Under the pieces are notes generated by a model. It did not search any database. It was not told where the DNA came from and saw only the letters and a list, made by a program, of their open reading frames with translations. DNA of 49,941 nucleotides from a virus (lineage: Duplodnaviria; Heunggongvirae; Uroviricota; Caudoviricetes): IMG/VR virus record IMGVR_UViG_2529293060_000008; one strand, 5' to 3'. The position numbers and the translations under genes are program-made. Below, piece after piece: positions 1,421 to 49,330 of this stretch (position 1 is its first letter; the number at the start of each line of letters is the position of its first letter).

Positions 1421-2489
1421 ATTTGATTTCAATTTTGTCCCACTCCCTGCCTCTGTCATCACGATACTGTGATGCCATGGTGTCCGACTTATGCCCGAGA
1501 AGATGTTGAGCAAACTTATCGCTTATCTGCTTCTCATAGAGTCTTGCAGACAAACTGCGCAACTCGTGAAAGGTAGGCGGATCCCCTTCGAAGGAAAGAC
1601 CTGATGCTTTTCGTGCGCGCATAAAATACCTTGATACTGTGCCGGATGAAAGCGGTTCGCGACGAGTAGATGCAATTATGGTTTCTCCGCCAAGAATCTC
1701 TTTGCATTTATCAAGTGTTTCCTTCATTGATATTCCGAGAGCATCAACATGCAATGCTGTTGGGATGGCAATTTTTACGCCTGTTTTGCTTTGCTCGACA
1801 TAAAGATATCCATCTACGATATCAGACCACTTCATTTCGCATAAATCACCAACTCGTTGCCCGGTAACAACAGCCAGTTCCATTGCAAGTCTGAGCCAAC
1901 ATGGTGATGATTCTGCTGCTTGATAAATTTTCAGGTATTCGTCAGCCGTAAGTCTTGATCTCCTTACCTCTGATTTTGCTGCGCGAGTGGCAGCGACAGG
2001 GTTTGTTGTTATATGGCCTTCAGCTATTGCCTCTCGGAATGCATCGCTCAGTGTTGATCTGATTAACTTGGCTGACGCCGCCTTGCCCTCGTCTATGTAT
2101 CCATTGAGCATTGCCGCAATTTCTTTTGTGGTGATGTCTTCAAGTGGAGCATCAGGCAGACCCCTCCTTATTGCTTTAATTTTGCTCATGTAATTTATGA
2201 GTGTCTTCTGCTTGATTCCTCTGCTGGCCAGGATTTTTTCGTAGCGATCAAGCCATGAATGTAACGTAACGGAATTATCACTGTTGATTCTCGCTGTCAG
2301 AGGCTTGTGTTTGTGTCCTGAAAATAACCCAATGTTGGCCTGTATAGCTTCAGTGATTGCGATTCGCCTGTCTCGGCCTAATCCAAACTCTTTACCCGTC
2401 CTTGGGTCCCTGTAGCAGTAATATCCATTGTTTCTTATATAAAGGTTAGGGGGTAAATCCCGGCGCTCATGACTTCGCCTTCTTCCCAT
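1419..2489 (-). CDS. int: Lambda-type integrase (tyrosine recombinase)
   Basis: 356 aa, near-identical to lambda Int as recalled (MGRRRSHERRDLPPNLYIRNNGYYCYRDPRTGKEF...); adjacent to attL. Confidence 0.95.
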   Translation of the reverse strand: MGRRRSHERRDLPPNLYIRNNGYYCYRDPRTGKEFGLGRDRRIAITEAIQANIGLFSGHKHKPLTARINSDNSVTLHSWLDRYEKILASRGIKQKTLINYMSKIKAIRRGLPDAPLEDITTKEIAAMLNGYIDEGKAASAKLIRSTLSDAFREAIAEGHITTNPVAATRAAKSEVRRSRLTADEYLKIYQAAESSPCWLRLAMELAVVTGQRVGDLCEMKWSDIVDGYLYVEQSKTGVKIAIPTALHVDALGISMKETLDKCKEILGGETIIASTRREPLSSGTVSRYFMRARKASGLSFEGDPPTFHELRSLSARLYEKQISDKFAQHLLGHKSDTMASQYRDDRGREWDKIEIK

Positions 2490-2685
2490 TTCTGATCCTC
2501 TTCAAAAGGCTACCTGTTACTGGTCGATTTAAGTCAACCTTTACCGCTGATTCGTGGAACAGATATTCTCTTCCATCCTTAACCGGAGGAGGGAATATCC
2601 TGCATTCGCGCACCCATCGACGAACTGTTTCAAGGCTTCTTGGGCGTCGCTGGCGAGCGTTCCACTCCTGAAGTGTCAAGTACAT
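2467..2685 (-). CDS. xis: Excisionase
   Basis: 72 aa (MYLTLQEWNARQRRPRSLETVRRWVRECRIFPPP...) matching lambda Xis; overlaps int 5' end as in lambda. Confidence 0.95.
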   Translation of the reverse strand: MYLTLQEWNARQRRPRSLETVRRWVRECRIFPPPVKDGREYLFHESAVKVDLNRPVTGSLLKRIRNGKKAKS

Positions 2686-2900
2686 CGCAAAGTCTCCGCA
2701 ATTACACGCAAGAAAAAACCGCCATCAGGCGGCTTGGTGTTCTTTCAGTTCTTCAATTCGAATATTGGTTACGTCTGCATGTGCTATCTGCGCCCACAGC
2801 ATCCAGTGGTCATAGCAGTCGCTGATGTTCTCGGCTTCGATAACTCTGTTGAATGGTTCTCCATTCTATTCACCTGTAACTCGGAAGTGCATTTATCATC

Positions 2901-2960
2901 GCCATAAAACAAAACTCGCCGTAGCGAGTTCAGATAAAAGAAAACCCGCACTCGGCGGGT
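2901..2960 (-). terminator. Two tandem stem-loops each followed by a T-run on the minus strand (leftward-transcript terminators)
   Basis: Hairpins ACTCGC-cgta-GCGAGT (2914..2929) and ACCCGC-actcg-GCGGGT (2944..2960); minus strand reads GGGTTTTCTTTTAT and TTTGTTTTAT after the stems. Confidence 0.45.
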
Positions 2961-3240
2961 TCGCATTCGTTCAAATTGCGTTTACTTCTTGGCGTTCTGT
3001 TCATCCATATCGATATACCATGGGTTGCTTCCCTTGGGCATGTTTAACGACTGCTCGCGATAGTATCTGATGCGCTCCATGAAATACTCGCGTGAGTGCT
3101 CAGGTTGCTCTCATGATACCTGCTCAGTGATAACAGGTATGTTAAGGCGCTCTCTGTACTCCATGCCTGATGCTGCAAGGTCAACGTTTACCTTGTTCTG
3201 TTTTTCTTTCGATTTCTCGGCGATGTTATGCCTGACATTG

Positions 3241-3483
3241 TCAACCCGCCTCCTTCTGAACATAACGGTTATAAATCAGTCCCTGAGGGCCATAAGGAAG
3301 CGGGATGTGCAACTCCTCTGGTTCAGAAACTATCCATTCCCCGGCCATCTCCGCTGGAGAGGTAATGATAAGTTGTTTGCTAATAAAAGGACCACTCCTC
3401 TCAACAACAAGCTTACCATCTTCATTAATAAAAGCTTGGATGTCAGGTGTGCTTCCACACTTGGTGATGCAGCGTTTGAACAT
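3241..3483 (-). CDS. Hypothetical small protein (lambda ea8.5 position)
   Basis: ORF in the int-proximal accessory region; start chosen at the Met preceded by a GGGGGGA Shine-Dalgarno-like run; identity not recognised. Confidence 0.35.
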   Translation of the reverse strand: MFKRCITKCGSTPDIQAFINEDGKLVVERSGPFISKQLIITSPAEMAGEWIVSEPEELHIPLPYGPQGLIYNRYVQKEAG

Positions 3484-3609
3484 TTTGTGTCCCCCCATTT
3501 TATGGACGGGGTAATTATAACACATTGAAATATAGTAATATTTGACGTAGATTTCTTTTGATCTATAAGCGATTTTTTAATGCTTTTAAGTTATAAATAC
3601 TTGTTTTCA

Positions 3610-4185
3610 TCACCCATCTTGCTGCGGTGCTACTATTGAAAAGTACTCACACCCTTTAGCCCAAATAGTTTTGATAGTTGTCCAACTGACTGGAACCTTG
3701 ATTTCGATTCTTCCGCTGCCGTCACAAGTTTCGCAATCATCATCACCAAAGCATTCCGGGCAGCTTATAAACGTAGTTTCTGAAAATTCACCGGATAGCA
3801 CACCCTTAGCGCCGTTCTCAGCGGTTAGTTTCTTCGGCACTATAACCCAACCATCCGGAGTTACCGGAGAGTTGCCATTTATATCGAAGTTTGGCTCTGC
3901 GTCCTGAACCAGGAGGATGTAACCATTCTTGGCAGTATCAAGTTCTAACGCCTCGGTGACGGTACCGAAATAGCGATTACCTAAATCCGCATCACAAGTG
4001 CTTACATCAATGGAAACCTCCATGCCTTCGATTAATTCTGGCAAGTTGTAAGTTTGGCTTACAGGTTCTGCTCCCAGTGATGCCAGTGCAATTCGTGCCA
4101 GTTCCATTTGTTCGCCACGAGTAAGCCCGTTTTCAAGCGGATTTTTAATGAACAATTCAATACGTTCTTTGGTAATAGTGGTCAT
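3610..4185 (-). CDS. Hypothetical protein with C-terminal CxxC...CxxCxGxG zinc-finger-like motif
   Basis: 191-aa ORF; CPECFGDDDCETCDGSG resembles a DnaJ-type zinc-finger repeat; same strand as neighbouring early-left genes. Confidence 0.5.
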   Translation of the reverse strand: MTTITKERIELFIKNPLENGLTRGEQMELARIALASLGAEPVSQTYNLPELIEGMEVSIDVSTCDADLGNRYFGTVTEALELDTAKNGYILLVQDAEPNFDINGNSPVTPDGWVIVPKKLTAENGAKGVLSGEFSETTFISCPECFGDDDCETCDGSGRIEIKVPVSWTTIKTIWAKGCEYFSIVAPQQDG

Positions 4186-4195
4186 TTGTTAGTCC

Positions 4196-4951
4196 TTAAA
4201 CTGCTAGTTGCAATTGCATTTCAAAGCGGTCGCGTTGTTCACAATACGCAAGAGAACCAGGGCTATTGTGTGCCTCAATCCGTTCTACCATTAATGCTGC
4301 GCGTGTCTCTTTACTTGCAGGTGCATAAGCCCCAGACCAGGCTTTATCAATACCGATGTTTCGAGCGACGTTCGTACTATCTGCGCTGGCTAAGGGTAAT
4401 TTTGTGAATATCAGCGGATTTAACATGCGCAATCCATGTAGTTTCGTAACCGGCTGACCATGCCCATCAACAATGTGACGAATCAGGTCTTTCATTCTGG
4501 CTACCGCAAGAGTTGGGCGCTTTACGTCATAGTCGCCACAACTACCGATAGCCACTCGCGGAAACTCATTGCACAAATGAATAAATCGCTCGTCACTTTC
4601 ATTCATGTGCCACACTGGAACGCCAGCTAGTTTTCCGTGAGGCCACTCATTCAGAAGCGCATCATTTTCCTCCTCTCCGCCATCAATAACATCCGGGATA
4701 ATGGCAAAATCGAATCCTGGGTGATTCTTCCAGCGAGCAACAAAATCGTAGTAATCGCTCCAGTCGATTTTGTTTTTGCCAGCTGCTTTCCAGGCGGTGA
4801 ATGCACCGTTGTCCAGCGCGAACGACTGACAGTATTCAGCCGCGAGATTGATCTGGCCTGAATGCGCAAAACTGATAAACGCATGTCGCCCTTTCCATGC
4901 TCTCATTGCGCACGTATCAGGAGTAATAGGCCCACCGTGGTAGTGAATCAT
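4196..4951 (-). CDS. Hypothetical protein, possible TGT-fold (tRNA-guanine transglycosylase / DpdA-like) enzyme
   Basis: 251 aa from MIHYHGGPITP...; motifs LDNGAF and FDFAIIPDV loosely resemble TGT-family Asp-containing motifs; assignment from memory only. Confidence 0.4.
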   Translation of the reverse strand: MIHYHGGPITPDTCAMRAWKGRHAFISFAHSGQINLAAEYCQSFALDNGAFTAWKAAGKNKIDWSDYYDFVARWKNHPGFDFAIIPDVIDGGEEENDALLNEWPHGKLAGVPVWHMNESDERFIHLCNEFPRVAIGSCGDYDVKRPTLAVARMKDLIRHIVDGHGQPVTKLHGLRMLNPLIFTKLPLASADSTNVARNIGIDKAWSGAYAPASKETRAALMVERIEAHNSPGSLAYCEQRDRFEMQLQLAV

Positions 4952-4952
4952 C

Positions 4953-5360
4953 TCACTCTCCTTTGATGCGAATGCCAGTAGCGCGGATTGCATCGATGAC
5001 TTCAGAAACTTTGTATGCCATTACCGTTTGGTAATCATCGTGAAAATCTGTTCGATGAAGCATGCTGCTACGTTCCGGGAGCAGTATTTCCCGCGCTTCC
5101 AATTCTGCAATGCGCTTTTTTGCTGCTTCCAGTGAATCCAGTAATTCCAGCACGGTAGCCGGATTAGCCTTGGCAACAAAATCCCGGACTGGCTTACAAT
5201 CAATCTCCGCAATGGGTTGATACGATGTGTAGCCATGCTGTCTTGTATAACTACCGTGACGAATAACGAAAAAATCACCATTTATTTTTTTAGCCTGCCA
5301 CTTATCTTCACCGGCTTTCTCTGCCGCTTCACGCAGTGCCTGAGAGTTAATTTCGCTCAC
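4953..5360 (-). CDS. Ead/Ea22-like prophage protein
   Basis: 135 aa with coiled-coil-like ATVLELLDSLEAAKKRIAELEAREILL segment typical of Ea22-like proteins; tight spacing to the downstream gene. Confidence 0.45.
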   Translation of the reverse strand: MSEINSQALREAAEKAGEDKWQAKKINGDFFVIRHGSYTRQHGYTSYQPIAEIDCKPVRDFVAKANPATVLELLDSLEAAKKRIAELEAREILLPERSSMLHRTDFHDDYQTVMAYKVSEVIDAIRATGIRIKGE

Positions 5361-5578
5361 TTCGAACCTCTCTGTTTACTGATAAGCTCCAGATCTTGCT
5401 GGCAACTGGCACAAGTCCGACAACCCTGAACGGCCAGTCGTCTTCGTTCATCTATCGGATCGCCACACTCACAACAATGAGTGGCAGATATAGCCTGGTG
5501 GTTCAGGCGGCGCATTTTTATTGCTGTGTTGCGCTGTAATTCTTCAATTTCTGATGCTGAATCAATTATGTCTGCCAT
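5357..5578 (-). CDS. DksA/TraR-family C4 zinc-finger protein
   Basis: 73 aa with CCECGDPIDERRRLAVQGCRTCASC (C4 zinc finger) as in phage TraR homologues; ATGA-type overlap with the downstream gene. Confidence 0.7.
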   Translation of the reverse strand: MADIIDSASEIEELQRNTAIKMRRLNHQAISATHCCECGDPIDERRRLAVQGCRTCASCQQDLELISKQRGSK

Positions 5579-5676
5579 CTTTCATTAATCCCTGAATTGT
5601 TGGTTAATACGCTTGAGGGTGAATGCGAATAATAAAAAAGGAGCCTGTAGCTCCCTGATGATTTTGCTTTTCATGT

Positions 5677-5892
5677 TCACCGTTCCTTAAAGACGCCGTT
5701 CAACATGCCGATCGCCAGGCTTAAATGAGTCGGTGTGAATCCCATCAGCGTTACCGTTTCGCGGTGCTTCTTTAGTACGCTACGGCAAATGTCATCGACG
5801 TTTTTATCCGGAAACTGCTGTCTGGCTTTTTTGATTTCAGAATTAGCCTGACGGGCAATGCTGCGAAGGGCGTTTTCTTGCTGAGGTGTCAT
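5677..5892 (-). CDS. Hypothetical protein
   Basis: ORF in the same operon orientation; start placed at the internal ATG (MTPQQENALRS...); no recognised family. Confidence 0.35.
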   Translation of the reverse strand: MTPQQENALRSIARQANSEIKKARQQFPDKNVDDICRSVLKKHRETVTLMGFTPTHLSLAIGMLNGVFKER

Positions 5893-5968
5893 TGAACAAG
5901 CCCCATGTCGGCAAGCATAAGCACACAGAATATGAAGCCCGCTGCCAGAAAAATGCATTCAGTGGTTG

Positions 5969-6321: not shown

Positions 6322-6992
6322 TGCTCCCCAAATACAAAACCAATTTCAGCCAGTGCCTCGTCCATTTTTTCGATGAACTCCGGCACCATCTCGTCAAAAC
6401 TCGCTATATACTTTTCATTCCGCTCAATCACGACATAATGCAGGCCTTCACGCTTCATACGCGGGTCATAGTTGGCAAAGTACCAGGCATCTTTTCGCGT
6501 CACCCACATGCTGTACTGCACCTGGGCCATGTAAGCCGACTTTATGGCCTCGAAACCACCGAGCCGGAATTTCATGAAATCTCGGGAGGTAAACGGGCAT
6601 TTCAGCTCAAGGCCATTGCCGTCACTGCATAAACCATCGGGAGAGCAGGCGGTGCGCATACTTTCGTCGCGATAGATTATCGGGGATTCAGTAACATTCA
6701 CGCCGGAAGTAAACTCAAACAGGGCTCTGGCGTCGTTCTCGTACTGTTTTCCCCAGGCCAGCGCCTTAGCGTTAACTTCCGGAGCCACACCGGTGCAAAT
6801 CTCAGCCAGCAGGGTGTGAAAGTAGGACATTTTCATGTCAGGCCACTTTTTTCCGGAGCGGGGTTTTGCTATCACATTGTGAACTTCTGAAGCCGTGATG
6901 ACGCCGAGTCGTAATTTGTGCCACGCATCATCTCCCTGTTCGACAGCTCTCACGTCGATCCCGGTACGCTGCAGGATAATGTCCGGTGTCAT
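6312..6992 (-). CDS. exo: Lambda exonuclease (Red alpha)
   Basis: 226 aa, matches lambda Exo as recalled ([58 protein letters not shown]...). Confidence 0.95.
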
Positions 6993-15067: not shown

Positions 15068-16681
15068 TTATTTATTGGTGAGTACTACGTTCCATGGCAG
15101 GAGTTCATCAACTCGGTTGGAAGGCCATTCCGGCAGTACGCTCAGGATATGGCGCAGATACGCTTCCGGATCGATACCGTTCAGACGGCAGGTGCCGATC
15201 AGCCCGTACAACAGTGCTCCACGCTCGCCGCCGTGATCGCTGCCAAAGAACATAAAGTTTTTCTTTCCGAGACAGACTGCACGAAGCGCTCTTTCCGCAG
15301 CATTATTATCCGCCTCCGCCAGACCGTCATCACTGTAATAACAGAGGGCATCCCACTGATTCAGTACATAGCTGAACGCTTCGCCCAGTCTGGATTTTTT
15401 CGACAGCGTACAATTCTTCTCCACCATCCATTCATGCAGCGACGTCAGTAACACTTTGCTTCGCTGCTGCCTGACGGCAAGACGCTCTGACTCCGGTAAT
15501 CCCCGTATTTCATCCTCGATGGCGTACAGTTCACTGATTCGCTTCAGTGCTTCTTCTGCCGTCGCACTTTTGCTGCTGATGTATACATCGTGGATTTTTC
15601 GCCGGGCATGGGCCCAGCACGCAACTTCTGTCAGTGCACCACCTTCACGTTCTGCACTGAACAACCTGTCGTAACCTGTGAACGCATCCGCCTGCAGGAT
15701 ACCCCGGAAGGGGCGGAGGTGTTGCTCCGGGTGTTTCCCCTGCCGGTTCGGCGAGTACGCGAACCAGACCGCTGGAGGAGATGACGAACCCACATTGCGA
15801 TCATCCCGGACATACGTCCAGATACGCCCTGTTTTCGCCTTTTTCTGACCCGGTGCCAGTACCTTTACCGGTGTGTCATCAGTGTGAATCTTGCGGGTGT
15901 TCATTACATAACGGTACAGGGCATCATTCACCGGTGTCATTAACTGGCAGCACGCGTCAACCCAGTTGGAGAGTAAGGCCCGGCTCAGTTCGACACCCTG
16001 GCGGGCAAAGATTTCACTCTGACGATACAGTGGCAGATGTTCGCAGTATTTTCCCGTTAACACGCGGGCAAGTAATCCGGGGCCCGCGATACCACGCTCT
16101 ATCGGGCGGGACGGCGCCGGTGCTTCAACAATACAGTCACATTTTGTACAGGCTTTTTTTACCCGTTCTGTGCGGATCACTTTCAGGGCACTGCTCACCA
16201 GTTCCAGCTGTTCAGCGCTGACTTCCCCCAGATAATCCAGCTCACCGCCACACTCCGGGCAACAGCTTTCTTCTGGCTCCAGGCGGTGTATTTCACGGGG
16301 AAGGTGTGCCGGTAACGGACGACGATGGCGCGACTGTCGCAACTGGCGGGGAACCTGAGGATCGTCTTCCCGCCCACTGTAACGATCGCTGTCCTGTTCA
16401 CGTTGTTTCAGCAGAGCCTCAGCCAGTTCAACTTCACGACGCAGTTTTTCAGAACGGGTACCGAACAGCATCCGGCGCAGTTTTTCTATCTGAGCCCGCA
16501 GATGTTCTATTTCCCGTTCATCTTCTTCGATCTTTTCTTCGGCACGTGTCAGTGCAGAGCGCAGGAAGGCTTCCGTCTCTTCAACCAGACTCAGTTGCTG
16601 GTCTTTCTGACGGAGGGCTTCAGCCTGCTCAGAGAGCAACCTTTCCAGCTCTGCGATGCGAATGAGGTATTTCTGACTCAT
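15068..16681 (-). CDS. tnpC: IS66-family transposase (TnpC)
   Basis: 537 aa with N-terminal coiled coil and Cys-rich segment (CCPECGGEL...CTKCDC), typical of IS66 transposases. Confidence 0.8.
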   Translation of the reverse strand: MSQKYLIRIAELERLLSEQAEALRQKDQQLSLVEETEAFLRSALTRAEEKIEEDEREIEHLRAQIEKLRRMLFGTRSEKLRREVELAEALLKQREQDSDRYSGREDDPQVPRQLRQSRHRRPLPAHLPREIHRLEPEESCCPECGGELDYLGEVSAEQLELVSSALKVIRTERVKKACTKCDCIVEAPAPSRPIERGIAGPGLLARVLTGKYCEHLPLYRQSEIFARQGVELSRALLSNWVDACCQLMTPVNDALYRYVMNTRKIHTDDTPVKVLAPGQKKAKTGRIWTYVRDDRNVGSSSPPAVWFAYSPNRQGKHPEQHLRPFRGILQADAFTGYDRLFSAEREGGALTEVACWAHARRKIHDVYISSKSATAEEALKRISELYAIEDEIRGLPESERLAVRQQRSKVLLTSLHEWMVEKNCTLSKKSRLGEAFSYVLNQWDALCYYSDDGLAEADNNAAERALRAVCLGKKNFMFFGSDHGGERGALLYGLIGTCRLNGIDPEAYLRHILSVLPEWPSNRVDELLPWNVVLTNK

Positions 16682-16711
16682 GACCGTTTTTATAATGCGG
16701 TCAGGAGTTTT

Positions 16712-17062
16712 TTACAACATTGTCAGTGAGTTACGGCTGGATGTTTTTGGCTGACGCCAGTCCAGCTTATCGAGGAGCATTGCCAGTTGCGAGCGGGTAA
16801 TGGATACCTTGCCGTCACGTACCGCAGGCCAGATAAACTGGCCTTCCTCCAGGCGTTTGGTGAACAGGCACAGACCATCAGCATCAGCCCAAAGAATTTT
16901 GACGGTGTCACCCCGTCGGCCACGGAAGATAAACAGGTGACCGGAGAAGGGATTATCATTCAGCACATGTTGTACCTGTTCTCCCAGTCCGTTGAAGGAT
17001 TTACGCATATCGGTAACGCCGGCAACGAGCCAGATACGGGTACCTGATGGGAGTGAGATCAT
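16712..17062 (-). CDS. tnpB: IS66 Orf2 (TnpB)
   Basis: 116-aa ORF, middle gene of the IS66 three-gene unit (MISLPSGTRIWLVAGVTDMRKSFNGL...). Confidence 0.75.
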   Translation of the reverse strand: MISLPSGTRIWLVAGVTDMRKSFNGLGEQVQHVLNDNPFSGHLFIFRGRRGDTVKILWADADGLCLFTKRLEEGQFIWPAVRDGKVSITRSQLAMLLDKLDWRQPKTSSRNSLTML

Positions 17063-17484
17063 CTTCCCCTCCCGGTCAGTTCACGGATCAACACTGTGAG
17101 CAGCTCTGGCGATGGATTTTCCAGCGTCATGTTACCGTGACGGAATTCCACCTTGCAGGAACTGGCACTGACTCTGGTCTGAGTGGAAGTGGATAAAGAC
17201 GGCGCAATGGCCGCCACAGGTTCTTTCTGCTCATCCGGCGTTATTTCTACAGGTAATAATTCAACGCCAGTGTCAGAAGAGGTCGTTACCGGAAGACGCC
17301 GCGAAACACGCCCTTCGTTCTGCCAGAGCCTGAGCCATTTGAAAATAACATTATCATTGACGCCATTTTCACGTGCAATCTGTGCAACACAAGCTCCAGG
17401 TTGTGATGCCAGTTCCACCATACGAAGTTTGAATTCATTCGAATAGTTTTTACGAGGTTCTTTTCGCCAGTCCTGTAATTCCAT
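17059..17484 (-). CDS. tnpA: IS66 Orf1 (TnpA, HTH)
   Basis: 141-aa ORF with HTH-like segment (ACVAQIARENGVNDNVIFKW); first gene of the IS66 unit; ATGA overlap with Orf2. Confidence 0.75.
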   Translation of the reverse strand: MELQDWRKEPRKNYSNEFKLRMVELASQPGACVAQIARENGVNDNVIFKWLRLWQNEGRVSRRLPVTTSSDTGVELLPVEITPDEQKEPVAAIAPSLSTSTQTRVSASSCKVEFRHGNMTLENPSPELLTVLIRELTGRGR

Positions 17485-23190: not shown

Positions 23191-23648
23191 ACAGAGTAAC
23201 CGCGATTATCTCCGCTCTGGTTATCTGCATCATCGTTTGCCTGTCATGGGCTGTTAATCATTACCGTGATAACGCCATTACCTACAAAGCCCAGCGCGAC
23301 AAAAATGCCAGAGAACTGAAGCTGGCGAACGCGGCAATTACTGACATGCAGATGCGTCAGCGTGATGTTGCTGCGCTCGATGCAAAATACACGAAGGAGT
23401 TAGCTGATGCGAAAGCTGAAAATGATGCTCTGCGTGATGATGTTGCCGCTGGTCGTCGTCGGTTGCACATCAAAGCAGTCTGTCAGTCAGTGCGTGAAGC
23501 CACCACCGCCTCCGGCGTGGATAATGCAGCCTCCCCCCGACTGGCAGACACCGCTGAACGGGATTATTTCACCCTCAGAGAGAGGCTGATCACTATGCAA
23601 AAACAACTGGAAGGAACCCAGAAGTATATTAATGAGCAGTGCAGATAG
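23187..23648 (+). CDS. Rz: i-spanin Rz
   Basis: 153 aa with N-terminal transmembrane segment and coiled coil; matches lambda Rz. Confidence 0.85.
23407..23589 (+). CDS. Rz1: o-spanin Rz1 (lipoprotein) embedded in Rz in the +1 frame
   Basis: 60 aa [24 protein letters not shown]...PPPPPAW, lipobox VVGC and proline-rich, as lambda Rz1. Confidence 0.85.
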
Positions 23649-38856: not shown

Positions 38857-39600
38857 ATGACAGAGACAGAATCAGCGATTCTGGCGCACGCCCGGCGATG
38901 TGCGCCAGCGGAGTCGTGCGGCTTCGTGGTAAGCACGCCGGAGGGGGAAAGATATTTCCCCTGCGTGAATATCTCCGGTGAGCCGGAGGCGTATTTCCGG
39001 ATGGCTCCGGAGGACTGGCTGCAGGCAGAGATGCAGGGTGAGATTGTGGCGCTGGTCCACAGCCACCCCGGTGGTCTGCCCTGGCTGAGTGAGGCTGACC
39101 GGCGGCTGCAGGTGCAGAGCGATTTGCCGTGGTGGCTGGTCTGCCGGGGGGCGATTCACAAGTTCCGCTGTGTGCCGCATCTCACCGGGCGGCGCTTTGA
39201 GTACGGGGTGACGGACTGTTACACACTGTTCCGGGATGCTTACCATCTGGCGGGGATTGAGATGCCGGATTTTCATCGCGGGGATGACTGGTGGCGTCAC
39301 GGTCAGAATCTCTATCTTGACAATATGGAGGCTACTGGTTTTTACCGTGTCGCACTGACAGAGGCGCAGCCGGGCGATGTGCTGCTGTGCTGTTTTGGTT
39401 CATCGGTGCCGAATCACGCCGCCATTTACTGCGGCGACGGTGAGCTGCTGCACCATATTCCTGAACAACTGAGTAAACGAGAGAGGTATACCGACAAATG
39501 GCAGCGACGCACACACTCCCTCTGGCGTCACCGGGAATGGCACGCATCTGCCTTTACGGGGATTTGCAACGATTTGGCCGCCGCATCGACCTTCGTGTGA
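38857..39600 (+). CDS. K: Tail tip assembly protein K
   Basis: MTETESAILAHARRCAPAESCGFVVSTPEGERYFPCVNISGEPEAYFRM...HSHPGG (JAB/MPN-like and NlpC-like segments) matching lambda gpK; ATG 5 nt after the L stop. Confidence 0.9.
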   Translation: MTETESAILAHARRCAPAESCGFVVSTPEGERYFPCVNISGEPEAYFRMAPEDWLQAEMQGEIVALVHSHPGGLPWLSEADRRLQVQSDLPWWLVCRGAIHKFRCVPHLTGRRFEYGVTDCYTLFRDAYHLAGIEMPDFHRGDDWWRHGQNLYLDNMEATGFYRVALTEAQPGDVLLCCFGSSVPNHAAIYCGDGELLHHIPEQLSKRERYTDKWQRRTHSLWRHREWHASAFTGICNDLAAASTFV

Positions 39601-40139
39601 AAACGGGGGCTGAAGCCATCCGGGCACTGGCCACACAGCTCCCGGCGTTTCGTCAGAAACTGAGCGATGGCTGGTATCAGGTACGGATTGCCGGGCGGGA
39701 TGCAGGAGAAACCGAATTATCATCCCGTCTTAATGAGCCGCTGGCAAATGGTGCCGTGATCCACATCGTGCCGCGTCTTGCGGGAGCAAAAAGTGGCGGT
39801 GTGTTTCAGGCGGTGCTGGGTGCGGCGTTGATTGCTACGGCAATCTGGATGCCGGGGATCAGTATCGCTTTCAGTGACATTCTCTTTTCAATGGGTGCGG
39901 CGATGACGCTTGGTGGTGTGGCGCAGATGCTGGCACCGAAAGCCAGAACTCCCCGTACACAGACAACGGATAACGGCAAACAGAACACCTATTTCTCCTC
40001 ACTGGATAACATGGTTGCCCAGGGCAATGTCCTGCCTGTTCTGTACGGTGAAATGCGCGTGGGGTCACGTGTGGCATCTCAGGAGATCAGCACGGCAGAT
40101 GAAGGGGATGGTGGTCAGGTTGTGGTAATTGGGCGGTAA
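39498..40139 (+). CDS. I: Tail tip assembly protein I
   Basis: MAATHTLPLASPGMARICLYGDLQRFGRRIDLRVKTGAEAIRALATQLPAF... matches lambda gpI; overlaps the K 3' end as in lambda. Confidence 0.9.
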   Translation: MAATHTLPLASPGMARICLYGDLQRFGRRIDLRVKTGAEAIRALATQLPAFRQKLSDGWYQVRIAGRDAGETELSSRLNEPLANGAVIHIVPRLAGAKSGGVFQAVLGAALIATAIWMPGISIAFSDILFSMGAAMTLGGVAQMLAPKARTPRTQTTDNGKQNTYFSSLDNMVAQGNVLPVLYGEMRVGSRVASQEISTADEGDGGQVVVIGR

Positions 40140-40212
40140 TATTATTTTACTCATGTTCTAACTAATTTAATATTTATATCGAACACTGATAATTATTCTA
40201 TTGGTTAGCTAT

Positions 40213-40551
40213 ATGAACAAAACGATTTTATTCTGCACGATTATTGCCTTAACAGGATGTAAATCTTTGGATTACGTAAAATCCGGAAAACCTGTAATGG
40301 AAGGTAATTCATTAAAAAATATTGATGAATTGTCAGGCTGCATATCCAGACAATGGGCTGGTAATGGAACACCTATAACATCCCTTCCTATTGAGAATGG
40401 GGTAAGCCTTTTAGTTCCACAGGCTATGGGGGGATATGATGTTGTGCTTGATATCAAAAAAGCAGGAAATGGCAGTAGTTTTACTCTTTATGAACGTGTA
40501 CCAGCATTAACGCCAAAAATTTTTGCTGATAGTGTTAATGCATGTAAATAA
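40213..40551 (+). CDS. Small lipoprotein encoded between I and J
   Basis: 112 aa from MNKTILFCTIIALTGCKSLDY... (signal peptide plus lipobox LTGC); AT-rich; own downstream terminator; lambda has no gene between I and J as far as I recall. Confidence 0.55.
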   Translation: MNKTILFCTIIALTGCKSLDYVKSGKPVMEGNSLKNIDELSGCISRQWAGNGTPITSLPIENGVSLLVPQAMGGYDVVLDIKKAGNGSSFTLYERVPALTPKIFADSVNACK

Positions 40552-40574
40552 TAGTTAATCCTGTCGTAACTCAT

Positions 40575-40600
40575 GAGCCGCCTTTTGGGCGGCTTTGTTG
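40575..40600 (+). terminator. Rho-independent terminator after the lipoprotein gene
   Basis: AGCCGCC-tttt-GGGCGGCT followed by TTGTTGTTT. Confidence 0.5.
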
Positions 40601-40617
40601 TTTATGGAGTGTGAGGA

Positions 40618-43600
40618 ATGGGTAAAGGAAGCAGTAAGGGGCATACCCCGCGCGAAGCGAGGGACAACCTGAAGTCCACGCAGCTGCTGAGTGTGATCGA
40701 TGCCATCAGCGAAGGGCCGGTTGAAGGTCCGGTGGACGGATTAAAAAGCGTGCTGCTGAACAGTACGCCGGTGCTGGACAGTGAGGGGAATACCAATATA
40801 TCCGGTGTCACGGTGGTGTTCCGGGCAGGTGAGCAGGAGCAGACACCGCCGGAGGGATTTGAATCCTCCGGCTCCGAGACGGTGCTGGGTACGGAAGTGA
40901 AATATGACACGCCGATCACCCGGACCATCACGTCGGCAAACATCGACCGTCTGCGCTTTACCTTCGGTGTGCAGGCACTGGTGGAAACCACCTCAAAGGG
41001 GGACAGGAATCCGTCGGAAGTCCGCCTGCTGGTTCAGATCCAGCGTAACGGTGGCTGGGTGACGGAAAAAGACATCACCATTAAGGGCAAAACCACCTCG
41101 CAGTATCTGGCCTCGGTGGTGGTGGATAACCTGCCGCCGCGCCCGTTTAATATCCGGATGCGCAGAATGACGCCGGACAGCACCACAGACCAGCTGCAGA
41201 ACAAAACGCTCTGGTCGTCATACACCGAAATCATCGATGTGAAACAGTGCTACCCGAACACGGCACTGGTCGGCGTGCAGGTGGACTCGGAACAGTTCGG
41301 CAGCCAGCAGGTGAGCCGTAATTATCATCTTCGCGGGCGCATTCTGCAGGTGCCGTCGAACTATAACCCGCAGACGCGGCAATACAGCGGTATCTGGGAC
41401 GGAACGTTTAAGCCAGCATACAGCAACAACATGGCCTGGTGTCTGTGGGATATGCTGACCCATCCGCGCTACGGCATGGGGAAGCGTCTCGGTGCGGCGG
41501 ATGTGGACAAATGGGCGCTGTATGTCATCGGCCAGAATTGCGACCAGTCGGTGCCGGATGGCTTTGGTGGCACGGAGCCGCGCATCACCTGTAATGCCTG
41601 GCTGACCACACAGCGCAAGGCGTGGGATGTTCTCAGTGATTTCTGCTCGGCGATGCGCTGTATGCCGGTATGGAACGGGCAGACGCTGACGTTCGTGCAG
41701 GACCGACCGTCGGATAAGGTGTGGACCTATAACCGCAGTAATGTGGTGATGCCGGATGATGGTGCGCCGTTCCGCTACAGCTTCAGCGCCCTGAAAGACC
41801 GCCATAATGCTGTTGAGGTGAACTGGATTGACCCGGATAACGGCTGGGAGACGGCGACAGAGCTTGTGGAGGACACGCAGGCCATTGCCCGTTACGGTCG
41901 TAACGTCACGAAGATGGATGCCTTTGGCTGTACCAGCCGGGGGCAGGCACACCGCGCCGGGCTGTGGCTGATTAAAACGGAACTGCTGGAGACGCAGACC
42001 GTGGATTTCAGCGTGGGTGCTGAAGGGCTTCGCCATGTACCGGGCGATGTCATTGAAATCTGCGATGATGACTATGCCGGTATCAGCACCGGTGGTCGCG
42101 TGCTGGCGGTGAACAGCCAGACCCGGACGCTGACGCTCGACCGTGAAATCACGCTGCCATCCTCCGGTACCACGCTGATAAGCCTGGTTGACGGTCAGGG
42201 TAATCCGGTCAGCGTGGAGGTCCAGTCCGTCACCGACGGCGTGAAGGTGAAAGTGAGCCGTGTTCCTGACGGCGTTGCAGAATACAGCGTGTGGGGGCTG
42301 AAGCTGCCGACGCTGCGCCAGCGCCTGTTCCGCTGCGTGAGTATCCGTGAGAACGATGACGGCACGTATGCCATCACCGCCGTGCAGCATGTACCGGAGA
42401 AAGAAGCCATCGTGGATAACGGGGCGCACTTTGACGGTGACCAGAGCGGCACGGTGAATGGTGTCACGCCGCCAGCAGTGCAGCACCTGACCGCCGAAGT
42501 CACTGCAGACAGCGGGGAATATCAGGTGCTGGCGCGATGGGACACACCGAAGGTGGTGAAGGGCGTGAGCTTCCTGCTCCGTCTGACCGTAACAGCGGAC
42601 GACGGCAGTGAGCGACTGGTCAGCACGGCCCGGACGACGGAAACCACATACCGCTTCACGCAACTGGCGCTGGGGAACTACAGGCTGACAGTCCGGGCGG
42701 TAAATGCCCGGGGGCAGCAGGGCGATCCGGCGTCGGTATCGTTCCGGATTGCCGCACCGGCAGCACCGTCGAGGATTGAGCTGACGCCGGGCTATTTTCA
42801 GATAACCGCCACGCCGCATCTTGCCGTTTATGACCCGACGGTACAGTTTGAGTTCTGGTTCTCGGAAAAGCGGATTGCGGATATCAGGCAGATTGAAACC
42901 GCAGCCCGCTATCTTGGCTCGGCGCTGTACTGGATAGCTGCCAGTATCAATATCAAACCGGGCCATGATTATTATTTTTATATCCGCAGTGTGAATACTG
43001 TTGGCAAATCGGCATTCGTGGAGGCTGTCGGTCGGGCGAGCGATGATGCGGAAGGTTACCTGGATTTTTTCAAAGGAGAAATCGGGAAAACACATCTGGC
43101 CCAGGAGTTGTGGACGCAGATTGATAACGGTCAGCTTGCGCCGGACCTGGCTGAAATCAGGACGTCCATTACGAATGTCAGCAATGAAATCACGCAGACC
43201 GTCAATAAAAAAATGGAAGACCAGAGTGCGGCAATCCAGCAGATACAGAAAGTTCAGGTTGATACAAATAATAACCTGAACAGCATGTGGGCCGTGAAAC
43301 TGCAGCAGATGAAGGACGGACGCCTTTATATTGCGGGTATCGGTGCCGGTATTGAGAACACCCCTGACGGCATGCAGAGTCAGGTGCTTCTGGCTGCTGA
43401 CCGGATTGCGATGATTAATCCTGCGAATGGCAACACAAAGCCGATGTTTGTTGGTCAGGGCGATCAGATATTCATGAACGACGTGTTCCTGAAACGCCTG
43501 ACGGCTCCGACCATTACCAGCGGCGGTAATCCTCCGGCATTTTCCCTGACACCGGACGGGCGGCTGACGGTGAAAAATGCCGATATCAGCGGTAACGTGA

Positions 43601-44097
43601 ATGCGAACTCCGGGACGCTCAACAACGTCACGATTAACGAGAACTGTCGGGTTCTGGGAAAATTGTCCGCGAACCAGATTGAAGGCGATCTCGTTAAAAC
43701 AGTGGGCAAAGCTTTCCCCCGGGACTCCCGTGCACCGGAGCGGTGGCCATCAGGAACCATTACCGTCAGGGTTTATGACGATCAGCCGTTTGACCGGCAG
43801 ATTGTTATTCCGGCGGTGGCATTCAGCGGCGCTAAACATGAGAAAGAGCATACTGATATTTACTCCTCATGCCGTCTGATAGTGCGGAAAAACGGTGCTG
43901 AAATTTATAACCGTACCGCGCTGGATAATACGCTGATTTACAGTGGTGTTATTGATATGCCTGCCGGTCACGGTCACATGACACTGGAGTTTTCGGTGTC
44001 AGCATGGCTGGTAAATAACTGGTATCCCACAGCAAGTATCAGCGATTTGCTGGTTGTGGTGATGAAGAAAGCCACTGCAGGCATCACGATTAGCTGA
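40618..44097 (+). CDS. J: Central tail fibre / host-specificity protein J
   Basis: 1159 aa; N-terminus [54 protein letters not shown] matches lambda gpJ. Confidence 0.95.
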
Positions 44098-48621: not shown

Positions 48622-48670
48622 CCGCAGCACGTCTTAAGCAAGAACGTGCTGCGGTTAGATGCTATTTTTT
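48622..48670 (+). terminator. Stem-loop plus T-run after tfa
   Basis: CCGCAGCACGT-cttaagcaagA-ACGTGCTGCGG followed a few bases later by TATTTTTT; the same hairpin recurs at about 49670..49700. Confidence 0.45.
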
Positions 48671-49330
48671 CCCTGAAGCGGAAAACATTACTACAGTACC
48701 TTGAACCTTGGTTTTAACATTCTCGAAATGCTCTGAGAGTATATGTGTTAAGCCTTCTTCGGAATCTTTTGTGTTTGAAAAGATGCCTTTCTGATTGTAA
48801 ATGCGCATCAGTTTTTGACCGAAGCTATTGTGCACAACTCCATCGCCAAGAATTGTGGCTCCGTATAGAGTTCCATCGTCAGTTAAGGCCTGCGCCGCAT
48901 TGCGTATTACACAGCTTTTTGTAGATATATTTCCAGGCAGGCAGTGAAGAAGGTAAAACATGGAAATGGAATCAAATTGACCATGTAACGCCGCGGGATA
49001 AGGTTCAAAAACATCATGGCTAATTTTATGTTTAATTTTTGATTCCCCAGCCCTTGTAGATGCCGCGTTCAGGCTAGCTTCGTTCAAATCCATTAAAGAT
49101 ATCAGACTACTCTCAGGTACGTGAGTAAGGTAAAACCCAGTTCCAACACCAATATCCAGATGGTTGTTACCTACATGTTCCAGAAAGTGTGGAAGAAGGT
49201 GTTCCTTTGTAGGACATCCCCATGCAAGCCGATTTGATACTCCCAAAACCCACCAGTCATAAAGCTTTAGGGTAAGTGGTGTGTAAATTTTAGCCCCATC
49301 ATCTGTGTTTTTTTTCATTGATTTCACCAT
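48662..49330 (-). CDS. Class I SAM-dependent methyltransferase (substrate unknown)
   Basis: 222 aa with motif I LDIGVGTGFY; opposite strand to the tail fibre genes; flanked by duplicated tfa 3' ends. Confidence 0.6.
   Translation of the reverse strand: MVKSMKKNTDDGAKIYTPLTLKLYDWWVLGVSNRLAWGCPTKEHLLPHFLEHVGNNHLDIGVGTGFYLTHVPESSLISLMDLNEASLNAASTRAGESKIKHKISHDVFEPYPAALHGQFDSISMFYLLHCLPGNISTKSCVIRNAAQALTDDGTLYGATILGDGVVHNSFGQKLMRIYNQKGIFSNTKDSEEGLTHILSEHFENVKTKVQGTVVMFSASGKK

Follow-up and report, generated by a model that had tools for sequence, protein, structure and literature searches.

A predicted lipoprotein gene of the PHROG 914 family as mobile cargo in the tail operon of a lambda-like prophage, with a tentative role in superinfection exclusion

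Why would a lambda-like prophage carry a small, AT-rich gene for a predicted lipoprotein between two of its tail genes, and what could the product do for the phage or for the bacterium? The gene in question lies in a stretch of Caudoviricetes DNA of 49,941 nucleotides (IMG/VR virus record IMGVR_UViG_2529293060_000008; hereafter the window), in which the tail assembly gene I and the tail tip and host specificity gene J are separated by a gap of 478 nt that holds a single open reading frame (ORF). A sequence-only reading of the window had described this ORF as an inserted lipoprotein gene with its own terminator and had proposed that it serves lysogenic conversion or superinfection exclusion. 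We addressed these proposals by comparing the junction with those of related phages and prophages, by profile and fold searches, and by asking how the gene is distributed and how it evolves. The comparison points to a conserved gene of the PHROG 914 family that moves between tail operons as cargo; for its function, we tentatively favor the exclusion of phages other than its carrier.

The ORF occupies 40213..40551 on the + strand (stop codon included), starts with ATG, and encodes a protein of 112 aa beginning MNKTILFCTIIALTGC; a TTG four codons upstream of the ATG at 40213 is a possible but unlikely alternative start. It is preceded by a 73-nt AT-rich leader (40140..40212, + strand) with a weak Shine-Dalgarno sequence. 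The signal peptide and lipobox that the earlier reader had described could be confirmed. The signal peptide, which ends in the lipobox MNKTILFCTIIALTG directly before C16, is encoded by 40213..40260 (+ strand) and could be read from the sequence: a positively charged M-N-K3, the hydrophobic core TILFCTIIA, and the lipobox L-T-G-C16. The ORF product thus has the features that mark a substrate of signal peptidase II, namely the n-region charge, the h-region, and a lipobox of the form [LVI][ASTVI][GAS]C some 15-25 residues into the protein. Signal peptidase II would cleave before C16, and the mature protein of ~97 aa would become lipidated. C16 is followed by Lys at +2 and Ser at +3. A lipobox is present in 132 of 141 collected family proteins, and position +2 is taken by A, S, T or K but never by D. 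By the Lol sorting rule of E. coli, the Lys of the window protein and the lack of Asp across the family predict that the Lol system would sort the protein to the outer membrane. A disulfide between C43 and C111 would form in the periplasm, and such a bond would fit a periplasmic or surface location.

Is this gene a regular part of the tail operon or an addition to it? Alignment with the empty I–J junctions of lambda, PhiR55_1 and Ayreon delimited an AT-rich cargo segment of ~425 bp (40141..40565, + strand), whose extra bases begin directly after the I stop codon. The spacer in these three phages is only ~60 nt long, so the statement that I and J adjoin in lambda was correct and the description of the gene as an insertion between them holds. 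Its unusual composition was also borne out: GC content is 0.36 in the ORF versus 0.58 in the 3-kb flanks, and profiles run at 0.33-0.40 across the gap and at 0.55-0.60 on both sides. Matches to the flanks were found in 262 phage records, of which 0 carry the insert, and at near-identity the insert was found in no deposited phage record. It is carried by 337 of 5426 complete E. coli genomes (about 6%), in as many as three copies and at several places in the chromosome, and it occurs together with its I and J flanks in 334; from these two counts, the insert in E. coli lies essentially always at I–J. Carriers include ATCC 11775, UTI89, S88, APEC O1, IHE3034, NU14 and one O104:H4 strain, and the ORF is always annotated there as a "hypothetical protein." Tail operons that are otherwise near-identical lack the insert; among the phages with an empty junction is PhiR55_1, which forms plaques (as PhiR55.1; PMC13190303) and shares the J type of the window. 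Since viable phages exist that have the same I and J but not the lipoprotein gene, this gene is dispensable for the virion and does not encode a tail component.

The protein belongs to a catalogued family. It matched PHROG 914 (function unknown) over its full length (residues 1-112 on profile positions 1-118 of 118, E = 7.3e-33). PHROG 914 was also matched by 51 of 51 diverse relatives, and searches of Pfam and NCBIfam with the ORF returned only signal-peptide noise (VirB7, E = 0.08). Homologs of 50-62% identity are found in Klebsiella, Enterobacter, Kluyvera and Jejubacter, and an exhaustive profile search gave 125 representatives at 50% identity, nearly all of 105-125 aa. Many relatives are on metagenome contigs. 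On plasmids the family had one match in 72,556 records, and the close subfamily was found in one of 185,579 species-representative genomes, a Kluyvera; as far as these searches indicate, the family is almost exclusively phage-borne. A tblastn search of phage records with one distant member (P0041) gave no match. Literature searches for WP_001332187, for phrog_914, and for morons, lipoproteins and exclusion retrieved no paper on the protein or the family, and the papers on SNIPE, HepS and lysogeny transcriptomics do not mention the protein. PHROG 914 is catalogued already but uncharacterized, and it appears to be undiscussed in the literature.

Several lines of evidence show that this gene is maintained by purifying selection. 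The ratio of non-synonymous to synonymous substitution rates (dN/dS) between genera is 0.14-0.28, with dS saturated, and alleles within E. coli differ mostly at synonymous sites (e.g., 5 synonymous versus 0-1 non-synonymous differences). The homologs of ~50% identity from enterobacteria share 31 invariant columns; across 51 diverse members, the lipobox Cys C16 and two more Cys, C43 and C111, never vary, and P27, K35, W48 and G63 hardly do. These residues make up the signature of the family. These data bear directly on the notion that the ORF is a non-functional hitchhiker in AT-rich junk DNA, as its weak Shine-Dalgarno sequence, its annotation as nothing but a hypothetical protein and the existence of a few frameshifted copies might be taken to indicate. 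Low dN/dS, the invariant columns, a confidently predicted fold, and a length and Cys pattern kept across 125 clusters effectively refute that notion, and we regard it as hardly credible. Damaged copies do exist in E. coli prophages (loci L071, L072, L073 and L082, with stops at codons 98 or 37 or with only the C-terminal 59 aa left), which indicates that the gene is occasionally lost.

Relatives of the gene occupy more than one position, and the positions recur. In Klebsiella, in Kluyvera, in a metagenomic phage (locus L091) and in the isolated phages Fraca and LMessi, the family member sits between K and I (the K–I slot), and in Enterobacter prophages it is flanked by T, which encodes a chaperone, and by the tape measure gene (the T–H slot). 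The same chaperone/tape measure slot is occupied in HK97 by the exclusion moron gene 15 (PMC3594210). The tail-operon relatives in enterobacterial elements (Klebsiella, Enterobacter, Fraca and L091) are again AT-rich, with a GC content of 0.41-0.44 versus 0.52-0.54 in their flanks. Other relatives lie outside this arrangement: two are on the opposite strand, the first within a replication module that also encodes DNA pol A, an SNF2 helicase and PDDEXK and the second beside the head genes of a small HK97-like element, and one (L085) is in a non-phage-like integrative island. In Pseudomonas phage phiAH14a, the member p33 (locus L095, 14640-14999, − strand) lies in the early arm, directly upstream of p32, a stray gene resembling that for tail assembly protein I. 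The deposited p33 has 93 aa, yet the open frame that matches the family profile hidden Markov model (HMM) is longer, and the deposited start therefore probably cuts off the signal peptide. Taken together, the distribution shows that the lipoprotein gene is horizontally mobile cargo, carried in the interchangeable slots T–H, K–I and I–J.

Family members are not the only lipoprotein genes at these sites. A second, unrelated lipoprotein ORF starting MRKFLSILACSLIIVGC lies directly upstream of the family member in Fraca (L002, 7648-7994) and in LMessi, and at the K–I junction of locus L074 an unrelated lipoprotein of 149 aa, starting MMKKLAIIGFAALVLSGC, is encoded directly downstream of the family member (6406-6855). 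At the K–I junction of phiAH14a, p83 (L094, 16239-16661) is a lipoprotein without a match to the family HMM; the authors who described this phage speculated that a lipoprotein other than the family member, in a comparable position, might play a Cor-like role. Tail-tip junctions thus appear to collect lipoprotein cargo of unrelated families. Locus L074 also holds ~4 kb between K and the lipoprotein gene (2100-5950), with ORFs resembling antirepressor/KilA-N proteins and helix-turn-helix (HTH) regulators on both strands, and is thus an island of several cargo genes within a tail operon. The lipoprotein gene in the T–H cassette of Enterobacter (L008, 6970-7000) has a strong Shine-Dalgarno sequence, GGAGG, that can base-pair with a CCTCC located upstream of it (aaCCTCCttacttctGGAGGtgtgaaaATG), and this pairing could form a translational control hairpin.

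How does the cargo connect to the operon? The ORF is followed by a junction joint (40575..40617, + strand) that consists of a GC-rich hairpin at 40575-40595, a T-rich run, and TTTATGGAG, which contains the Shine-Dalgarno sequence of J. The hairpin has 9 bp (GAGCCGCC-TTTT-GGGCGGCT(T), then TGTTGTTTAT) and folds at -19 kcal/mol, with z = -3 relative to shuffled sequences. The sequence-only reading had called this the gene's own terminator. A hairpin with a T-run is indeed present, but "own" was not borne out: a homologous hairpin stands in the empty I–J junctions of lambda, PhiR55_1 and Ayreon, in the last of which it is the annotated "terminator." In this joint, the hairpin and the T-run are followed by TTTATGGRG, which serves the next gene as its Shine-Dalgarno sequence, and, after about 8 nt, by ATG. 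The same joint is found at I–J junctions, whether filled or empty, and also marks the 3' end of K–I cassettes (window 40575-40617; L014, the lambda I–J junction; L012; L002 8355-8395; L004 7366-7403; L091 8400-8432). The hairpin of L091, AACCACCTGCGGGTGGTTTT, agrees with that of lambda, AACCGCCTGCGGGCGGTTTT, in 18 of 20 positions, and the two that differ make up a single compensatory pair. In the relatives at K–I and T–H, each ORF is likewise followed by a hairpin and a T-run. These alignments indicate that the hairpin is a shared junction joint, which here is not assignable to the ORF as its own, and the 60-nt I–J spacer of lambda could be the scar or the docking site of a cargo cassette.

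The ORF would be transcribed at least with the Q-antiterminated late operon. Our promoter scan was of the sigma-70 type, with weak or non-sigma-70 promoters outside its reach, and it found no site on the + strand upstream of the ORF that reached 9 of 12 matches; upstream of nine relatives, the best matches were no better than those in shuffled sequence. In K–I cassettes, the conserved leader that directly follows the K stop codon is only about 32 nt long and contains a good Shine-Dalgarno sequence. Expression from a repressed prophage is possible. An Rfam scan gave only a sub-threshold GcvB match over the 3' half of the ORF and the hairpin (40378-40603, + strand; 19.6 bits versus a gathering score of 42, E = 0.086), which we rejected as chance.

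We also asked whether the fold might reveal what the protein does. The AlphaFold2 model has a predicted local distance difference test (pLDDT) score of 83.7 and a predicted template modeling (pTM) score of 0.76, and its elements are ordered helix-strand-helix-four strands-helix. The nearest solved folds include the outer-membrane lipoproteins Flpp3 (DUF3568) and the N-terminal domain of BamC, with which the ORF protein shares only 6-10% sequence identity; the same fold is also used by KA1, DUF302 and Bet v 1/START proteins, so it says nothing on function. A profile search of PDB sequences gave 0 matches at E <= 10. The best viral fold match (template modeling scores of 0.70/0.83) is an unannotated protein of phiAH14a, which itself belongs to the PHROG 914 family by HMM (E = 4e-28).

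What, then, could the lipoprotein do? The reading that we favor, and hold tentatively, is heterotypic superinfection exclusion, in which the lipoprotein would act at the cell envelope and hinder the adsorption or DNA entry of other phages, and might also limit the loss of progeny to cell debris. The target of such exclusion would not be set by the J receptor-binding domain or the tape measure protein of the carrier itself. Characterized phage outer-membrane lipoproteins, spanins aside, serve mostly in phage entry (Cor, Llp) or serum resistance (Bor). We favor exclusion because lipoprotein cargo recurs at the tail tip, because one of the slots is that of HK97 gp15, and because known lipoproteins of this kind act on entry. 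A more specific version, for which we see only a limited chance, is that PHROG 914 forms a widespread and new family of outer-membrane lipoproteins from phages that protect the cell from other siphoviruses. Rather than masking the receptor of the carrier, they would act on something that many siphoviruses have in common, for example the step at which tail tip or tape measure protein crosses the periplasm, or an envelope factor used by many of them; the gene would be a plug-in cassette that changes places among tail-operon junctions through the conserved joint, with the lambda spacer as docking site or scar.

A number of our results weigh against exclusion. Among 32 loci with a complete J, the lipoprotein allele (98-100% identical) was paired with at least five J C-terminal clusters: 25 of the 32 have the J type of the window, while the other types are 74% identical, 55% identical, aligned over only about 50 residues, or chimeric, and a lambda-type J was found at none of the 32 loci. 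The tape measure proteins that accompany this allele likewise include unrelated ones, with identities of 25-99%. Defense models of PADLOC-DB 2.0 gave 0 families at E <= 1 when run on the ORF. The modeled structure, a compact alpha/beta helix-grip-like fold, is generic and carries no functional label, and the structures of Llp and Cor were absent from the fold-search results. Homology to Cor was rejected, the alignment being confined to the signal peptide region, and so was homology to Bor, since BLASTP against the Bor homolog of the window aligned the signal peptide only. The best sigma-70 match upstream of the ORF (8 of 12) was equalled in 320 of 500 shuffles, and 3 of 59 E. coli-type loci have frameshifted copies.

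The pairing data bear even more directly on a Cor/Llp-type mechanism, in which the lipoprotein would bind and inactivate the receptor of its own J. The gene does lie immediately upstream of J, and Cor and Llp are also small outer-membrane lipoproteins encoded beside receptor-binding genes (PMC3594210, PMC4936722). Co-variation with J would be expected for a blocker of this type and was not seen. VT1-Sakai, PPompW and PhiR55_1 have the same J type and no lipoprotein gene, their junctions all being empty, and because one identical allele pairs with at least five J types while the same J occurs without the gene, blocking of the phage's own receptor is improbable. Relatives of 50% identity, moreover, stand beside giant J genes (1600-3300 aa), between T and H, or outside tail operons altogether (J proteins beside relatives range from 1062 to >3300 aa), and Fraca carries a bona fide cor gene in addition to its family member.

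Two further readings would leave exclusion aside. The gene could be a late-acting lytic accessory, made only from the Q-antiterminated transcript and not in the lysogen, whose product masks the surface against losses to debris or conditions the outer membrane at lysis. For T5 Llp, a second role has been proposed in keeping released virions from inactivation on debris. The window gene and its relatives at three different junctions lie within the tail operon and on its strand, no promoter rises above chance in any context, and the short K–I leader places a good Shine-Dalgarno sequence right after the K stop; but the distant members L087 and L089 lie on the strand opposite to the lytic genes and would need their own transcription, L085 lies in an island that is not phage-like, and the terminator-like hairpin that directly follows the ORF in the K–I and T–H slots is best explained if non-antiterminated polymerase also reads the gene. 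We consider this reading unlikely. We think it quite unlikely that the protein is a host-fitness or virulence factor similar to Bor/Iss or TraT, one that raises serum resistance, adhesion or stress tolerance with no role in phage conflict. The E. coli allele is found in many strains of extraintestinal pathogenic E. coli (ExPEC) and avian pathogenic E. coli (APEC), such as UTI89, S88, APEC O1, IHE3034 and NU14, the same prophage carries the envelope conversion genes for Bor and Lom, and Flpp3, the nearest solved fold, has been described as a Francisella virulence determinant. That strain list, however, is skewed by sequencing effort and by the clonal spread of one prophage, and similarity to Bor ends with the signal peptide. 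The family is, besides, almost exclusively phage-borne and reaches environmental phages (the Antarctic Pseudomonas phage phiAH14a) and many metagenome contigs, where serum resistance is irrelevant.

If heterotypic exclusion, the favored reading, is true, PHROG 914 would be a third family of exclusion lipoproteins beside Cor and Llp, not tied to the receptor-binding domain of its carrier and thus with a different target. Envelope remodeling by prophage cargo affects the host range of phages, the outcome of phage therapy and, in some cases, virulence. About 6% of complete E. coli genomes carry this gene, among them that of the type strain and those of major ExPEC and APEC lineages, and Klebsiella and Enterobacter prophages carry relatives. 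The junctions also suggest a rule by which envelope cargo could be sought: an AT-rich ORF followed by the conserved hairpin/Shine-Dalgarno joint at T–H, K–I or I–J of siphovirus tail operons.

The surrounding prophage is lambda-like, with head and tail genes on the + strand and a lambda-type integrase at 1419-2489 (− strand). Gene I (39498..40139, + strand), which forms the left flank outside the insert, matched Pfam Lambda_tail_I with E = 4e-24, and J (40618..44097, + strand), the right flank, matched Pfam J domains that include the C-terminal receptor-binding domain Ig_GpJ_C; the stop of I at 40139 and the start of J at 40618 are as first reported. The C-terminal 265 aa of J are 97-98% identical to those of VT1-Sakai, the enterohemorrhagic E. 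coli (EHEC) "PPompW" prophages and PhiR55_1. Pfam searches also identified a complete IS66-family element in the middle of the prophage (15068-17484, − strand; transposase PF03050, IS66 Orf2/TnpB PF05717 and an HTH Orf1), and given this insertion, the prophage may be defective. Other envelope-related genes in the window encode an Rz1-like o-spanin lipoprotein (23407-23589, + strand), a Bor homolog (PF06291; 23680-23973, − strand) and, downstream of J, Lom (PF06316; 44165-44764, + strand); no cor gene was found in the window. At the end of the tail-fiber region, as in UTI89, there is a gene for a class I S-adenosylmethionine (SAM)-dependent methyltransferase (48662-49330, − strand), which adjoins remnants of tail-fiber-assembly genes and an ompW fragment and is probably further cargo at the prophage end.

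Comparison with known systems helps to place the protein. Some assignments were set aside: a spanin does not fit, as the protein has no C-terminal transmembrane domain and Rz1 is located elsewhere (23407-23589); nor does a lysozyme inhibitor of the MliC/PliC type, the predicted fold being alpha/beta rather than a beta-barrel; and an immunity protein for the NlpC/P60 domain of gpK is at odds with the gene's often lying far from K and with its absence from most K-bearing phages. The sequence-only reading had likened the gene to cor and llp. This likeness stood for the class of protein but not for homology to Cor or a fold match to Llp. Both known genes are linked to receptor-binding genes, and their products are small outer-membrane lipoproteins (PMC3594210, PMC4936722), a linkage that the position of the lipoprotein gene at tail-tip junctions would, by analogy, mirror. 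With Cor (phi80, N15, HK022 and mEp167; PHROG 1119), the window gene, whose product is predicted to be a small phage outer-membrane lipoprotein as Cor is, shares a location in the tail region on the late-gene strand and a proposed role in exclusion. The mature protein, however, has ~97 aa versus ~60 aa in Cor, and its gene is not tied to one type of receptor-binding domain. An hhalign comparison of the family alignment with the Cor of Fraca extended over just 30 columns, which comprise the signal peptide with its lipobox and about 12 further residues (probability of 82%), and only 2 of 51 members touched PHROG 1119 (E = 5e-4). T5 Llp, too, is a phage lipoprotein, with a disulfide like the one predicted here, and its gene also adjoins that of the receptor-binding protein. 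Lambda Bor and Iss resemble the window protein as prophage-borne outer-membrane lipoproteins of ~100 aa, with a Bor homolog present in the same window, but the similarity is limited to the signal peptide and the genomic position is another.

The closest parallel in genetic organization may be the morons. In the sense of Juhala et al. (2000), as summarized in PMC3594210, these are pieces of extra DNA that separate genes which adjoin in related phages, and they have a differing GC content, an own promoter, an own terminator and expression from the repressed prophage. The insert is extra DNA between adjacent genes, and its GC content differs from that of its neighbors. The window gene departs from morons in that no sigma-70 promoter of its own was detected and in that its hairpin is common to empty sites. 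The products differ as well: HK97 gp15 is a YebO-like inner-membrane protein and Lom is a beta-barrel, whereas the window protein is a predicted lipoprotein of an unrelated family. This kind of element is therefore a familiar one, envelope-targeted and moron-like cargo of lambdoid tail operons, which is made modestly interesting by the lack of linkage to a receptor-binding domain, by the hopping between slots, and by the shared joint. With the morons HK97 gene 15, lambda lom and bor, it has in common that it is extra DNA with a shift in GC content, followed by a terminator-like hairpin, located in the tail operon, and coding for a product targeted to the envelope.

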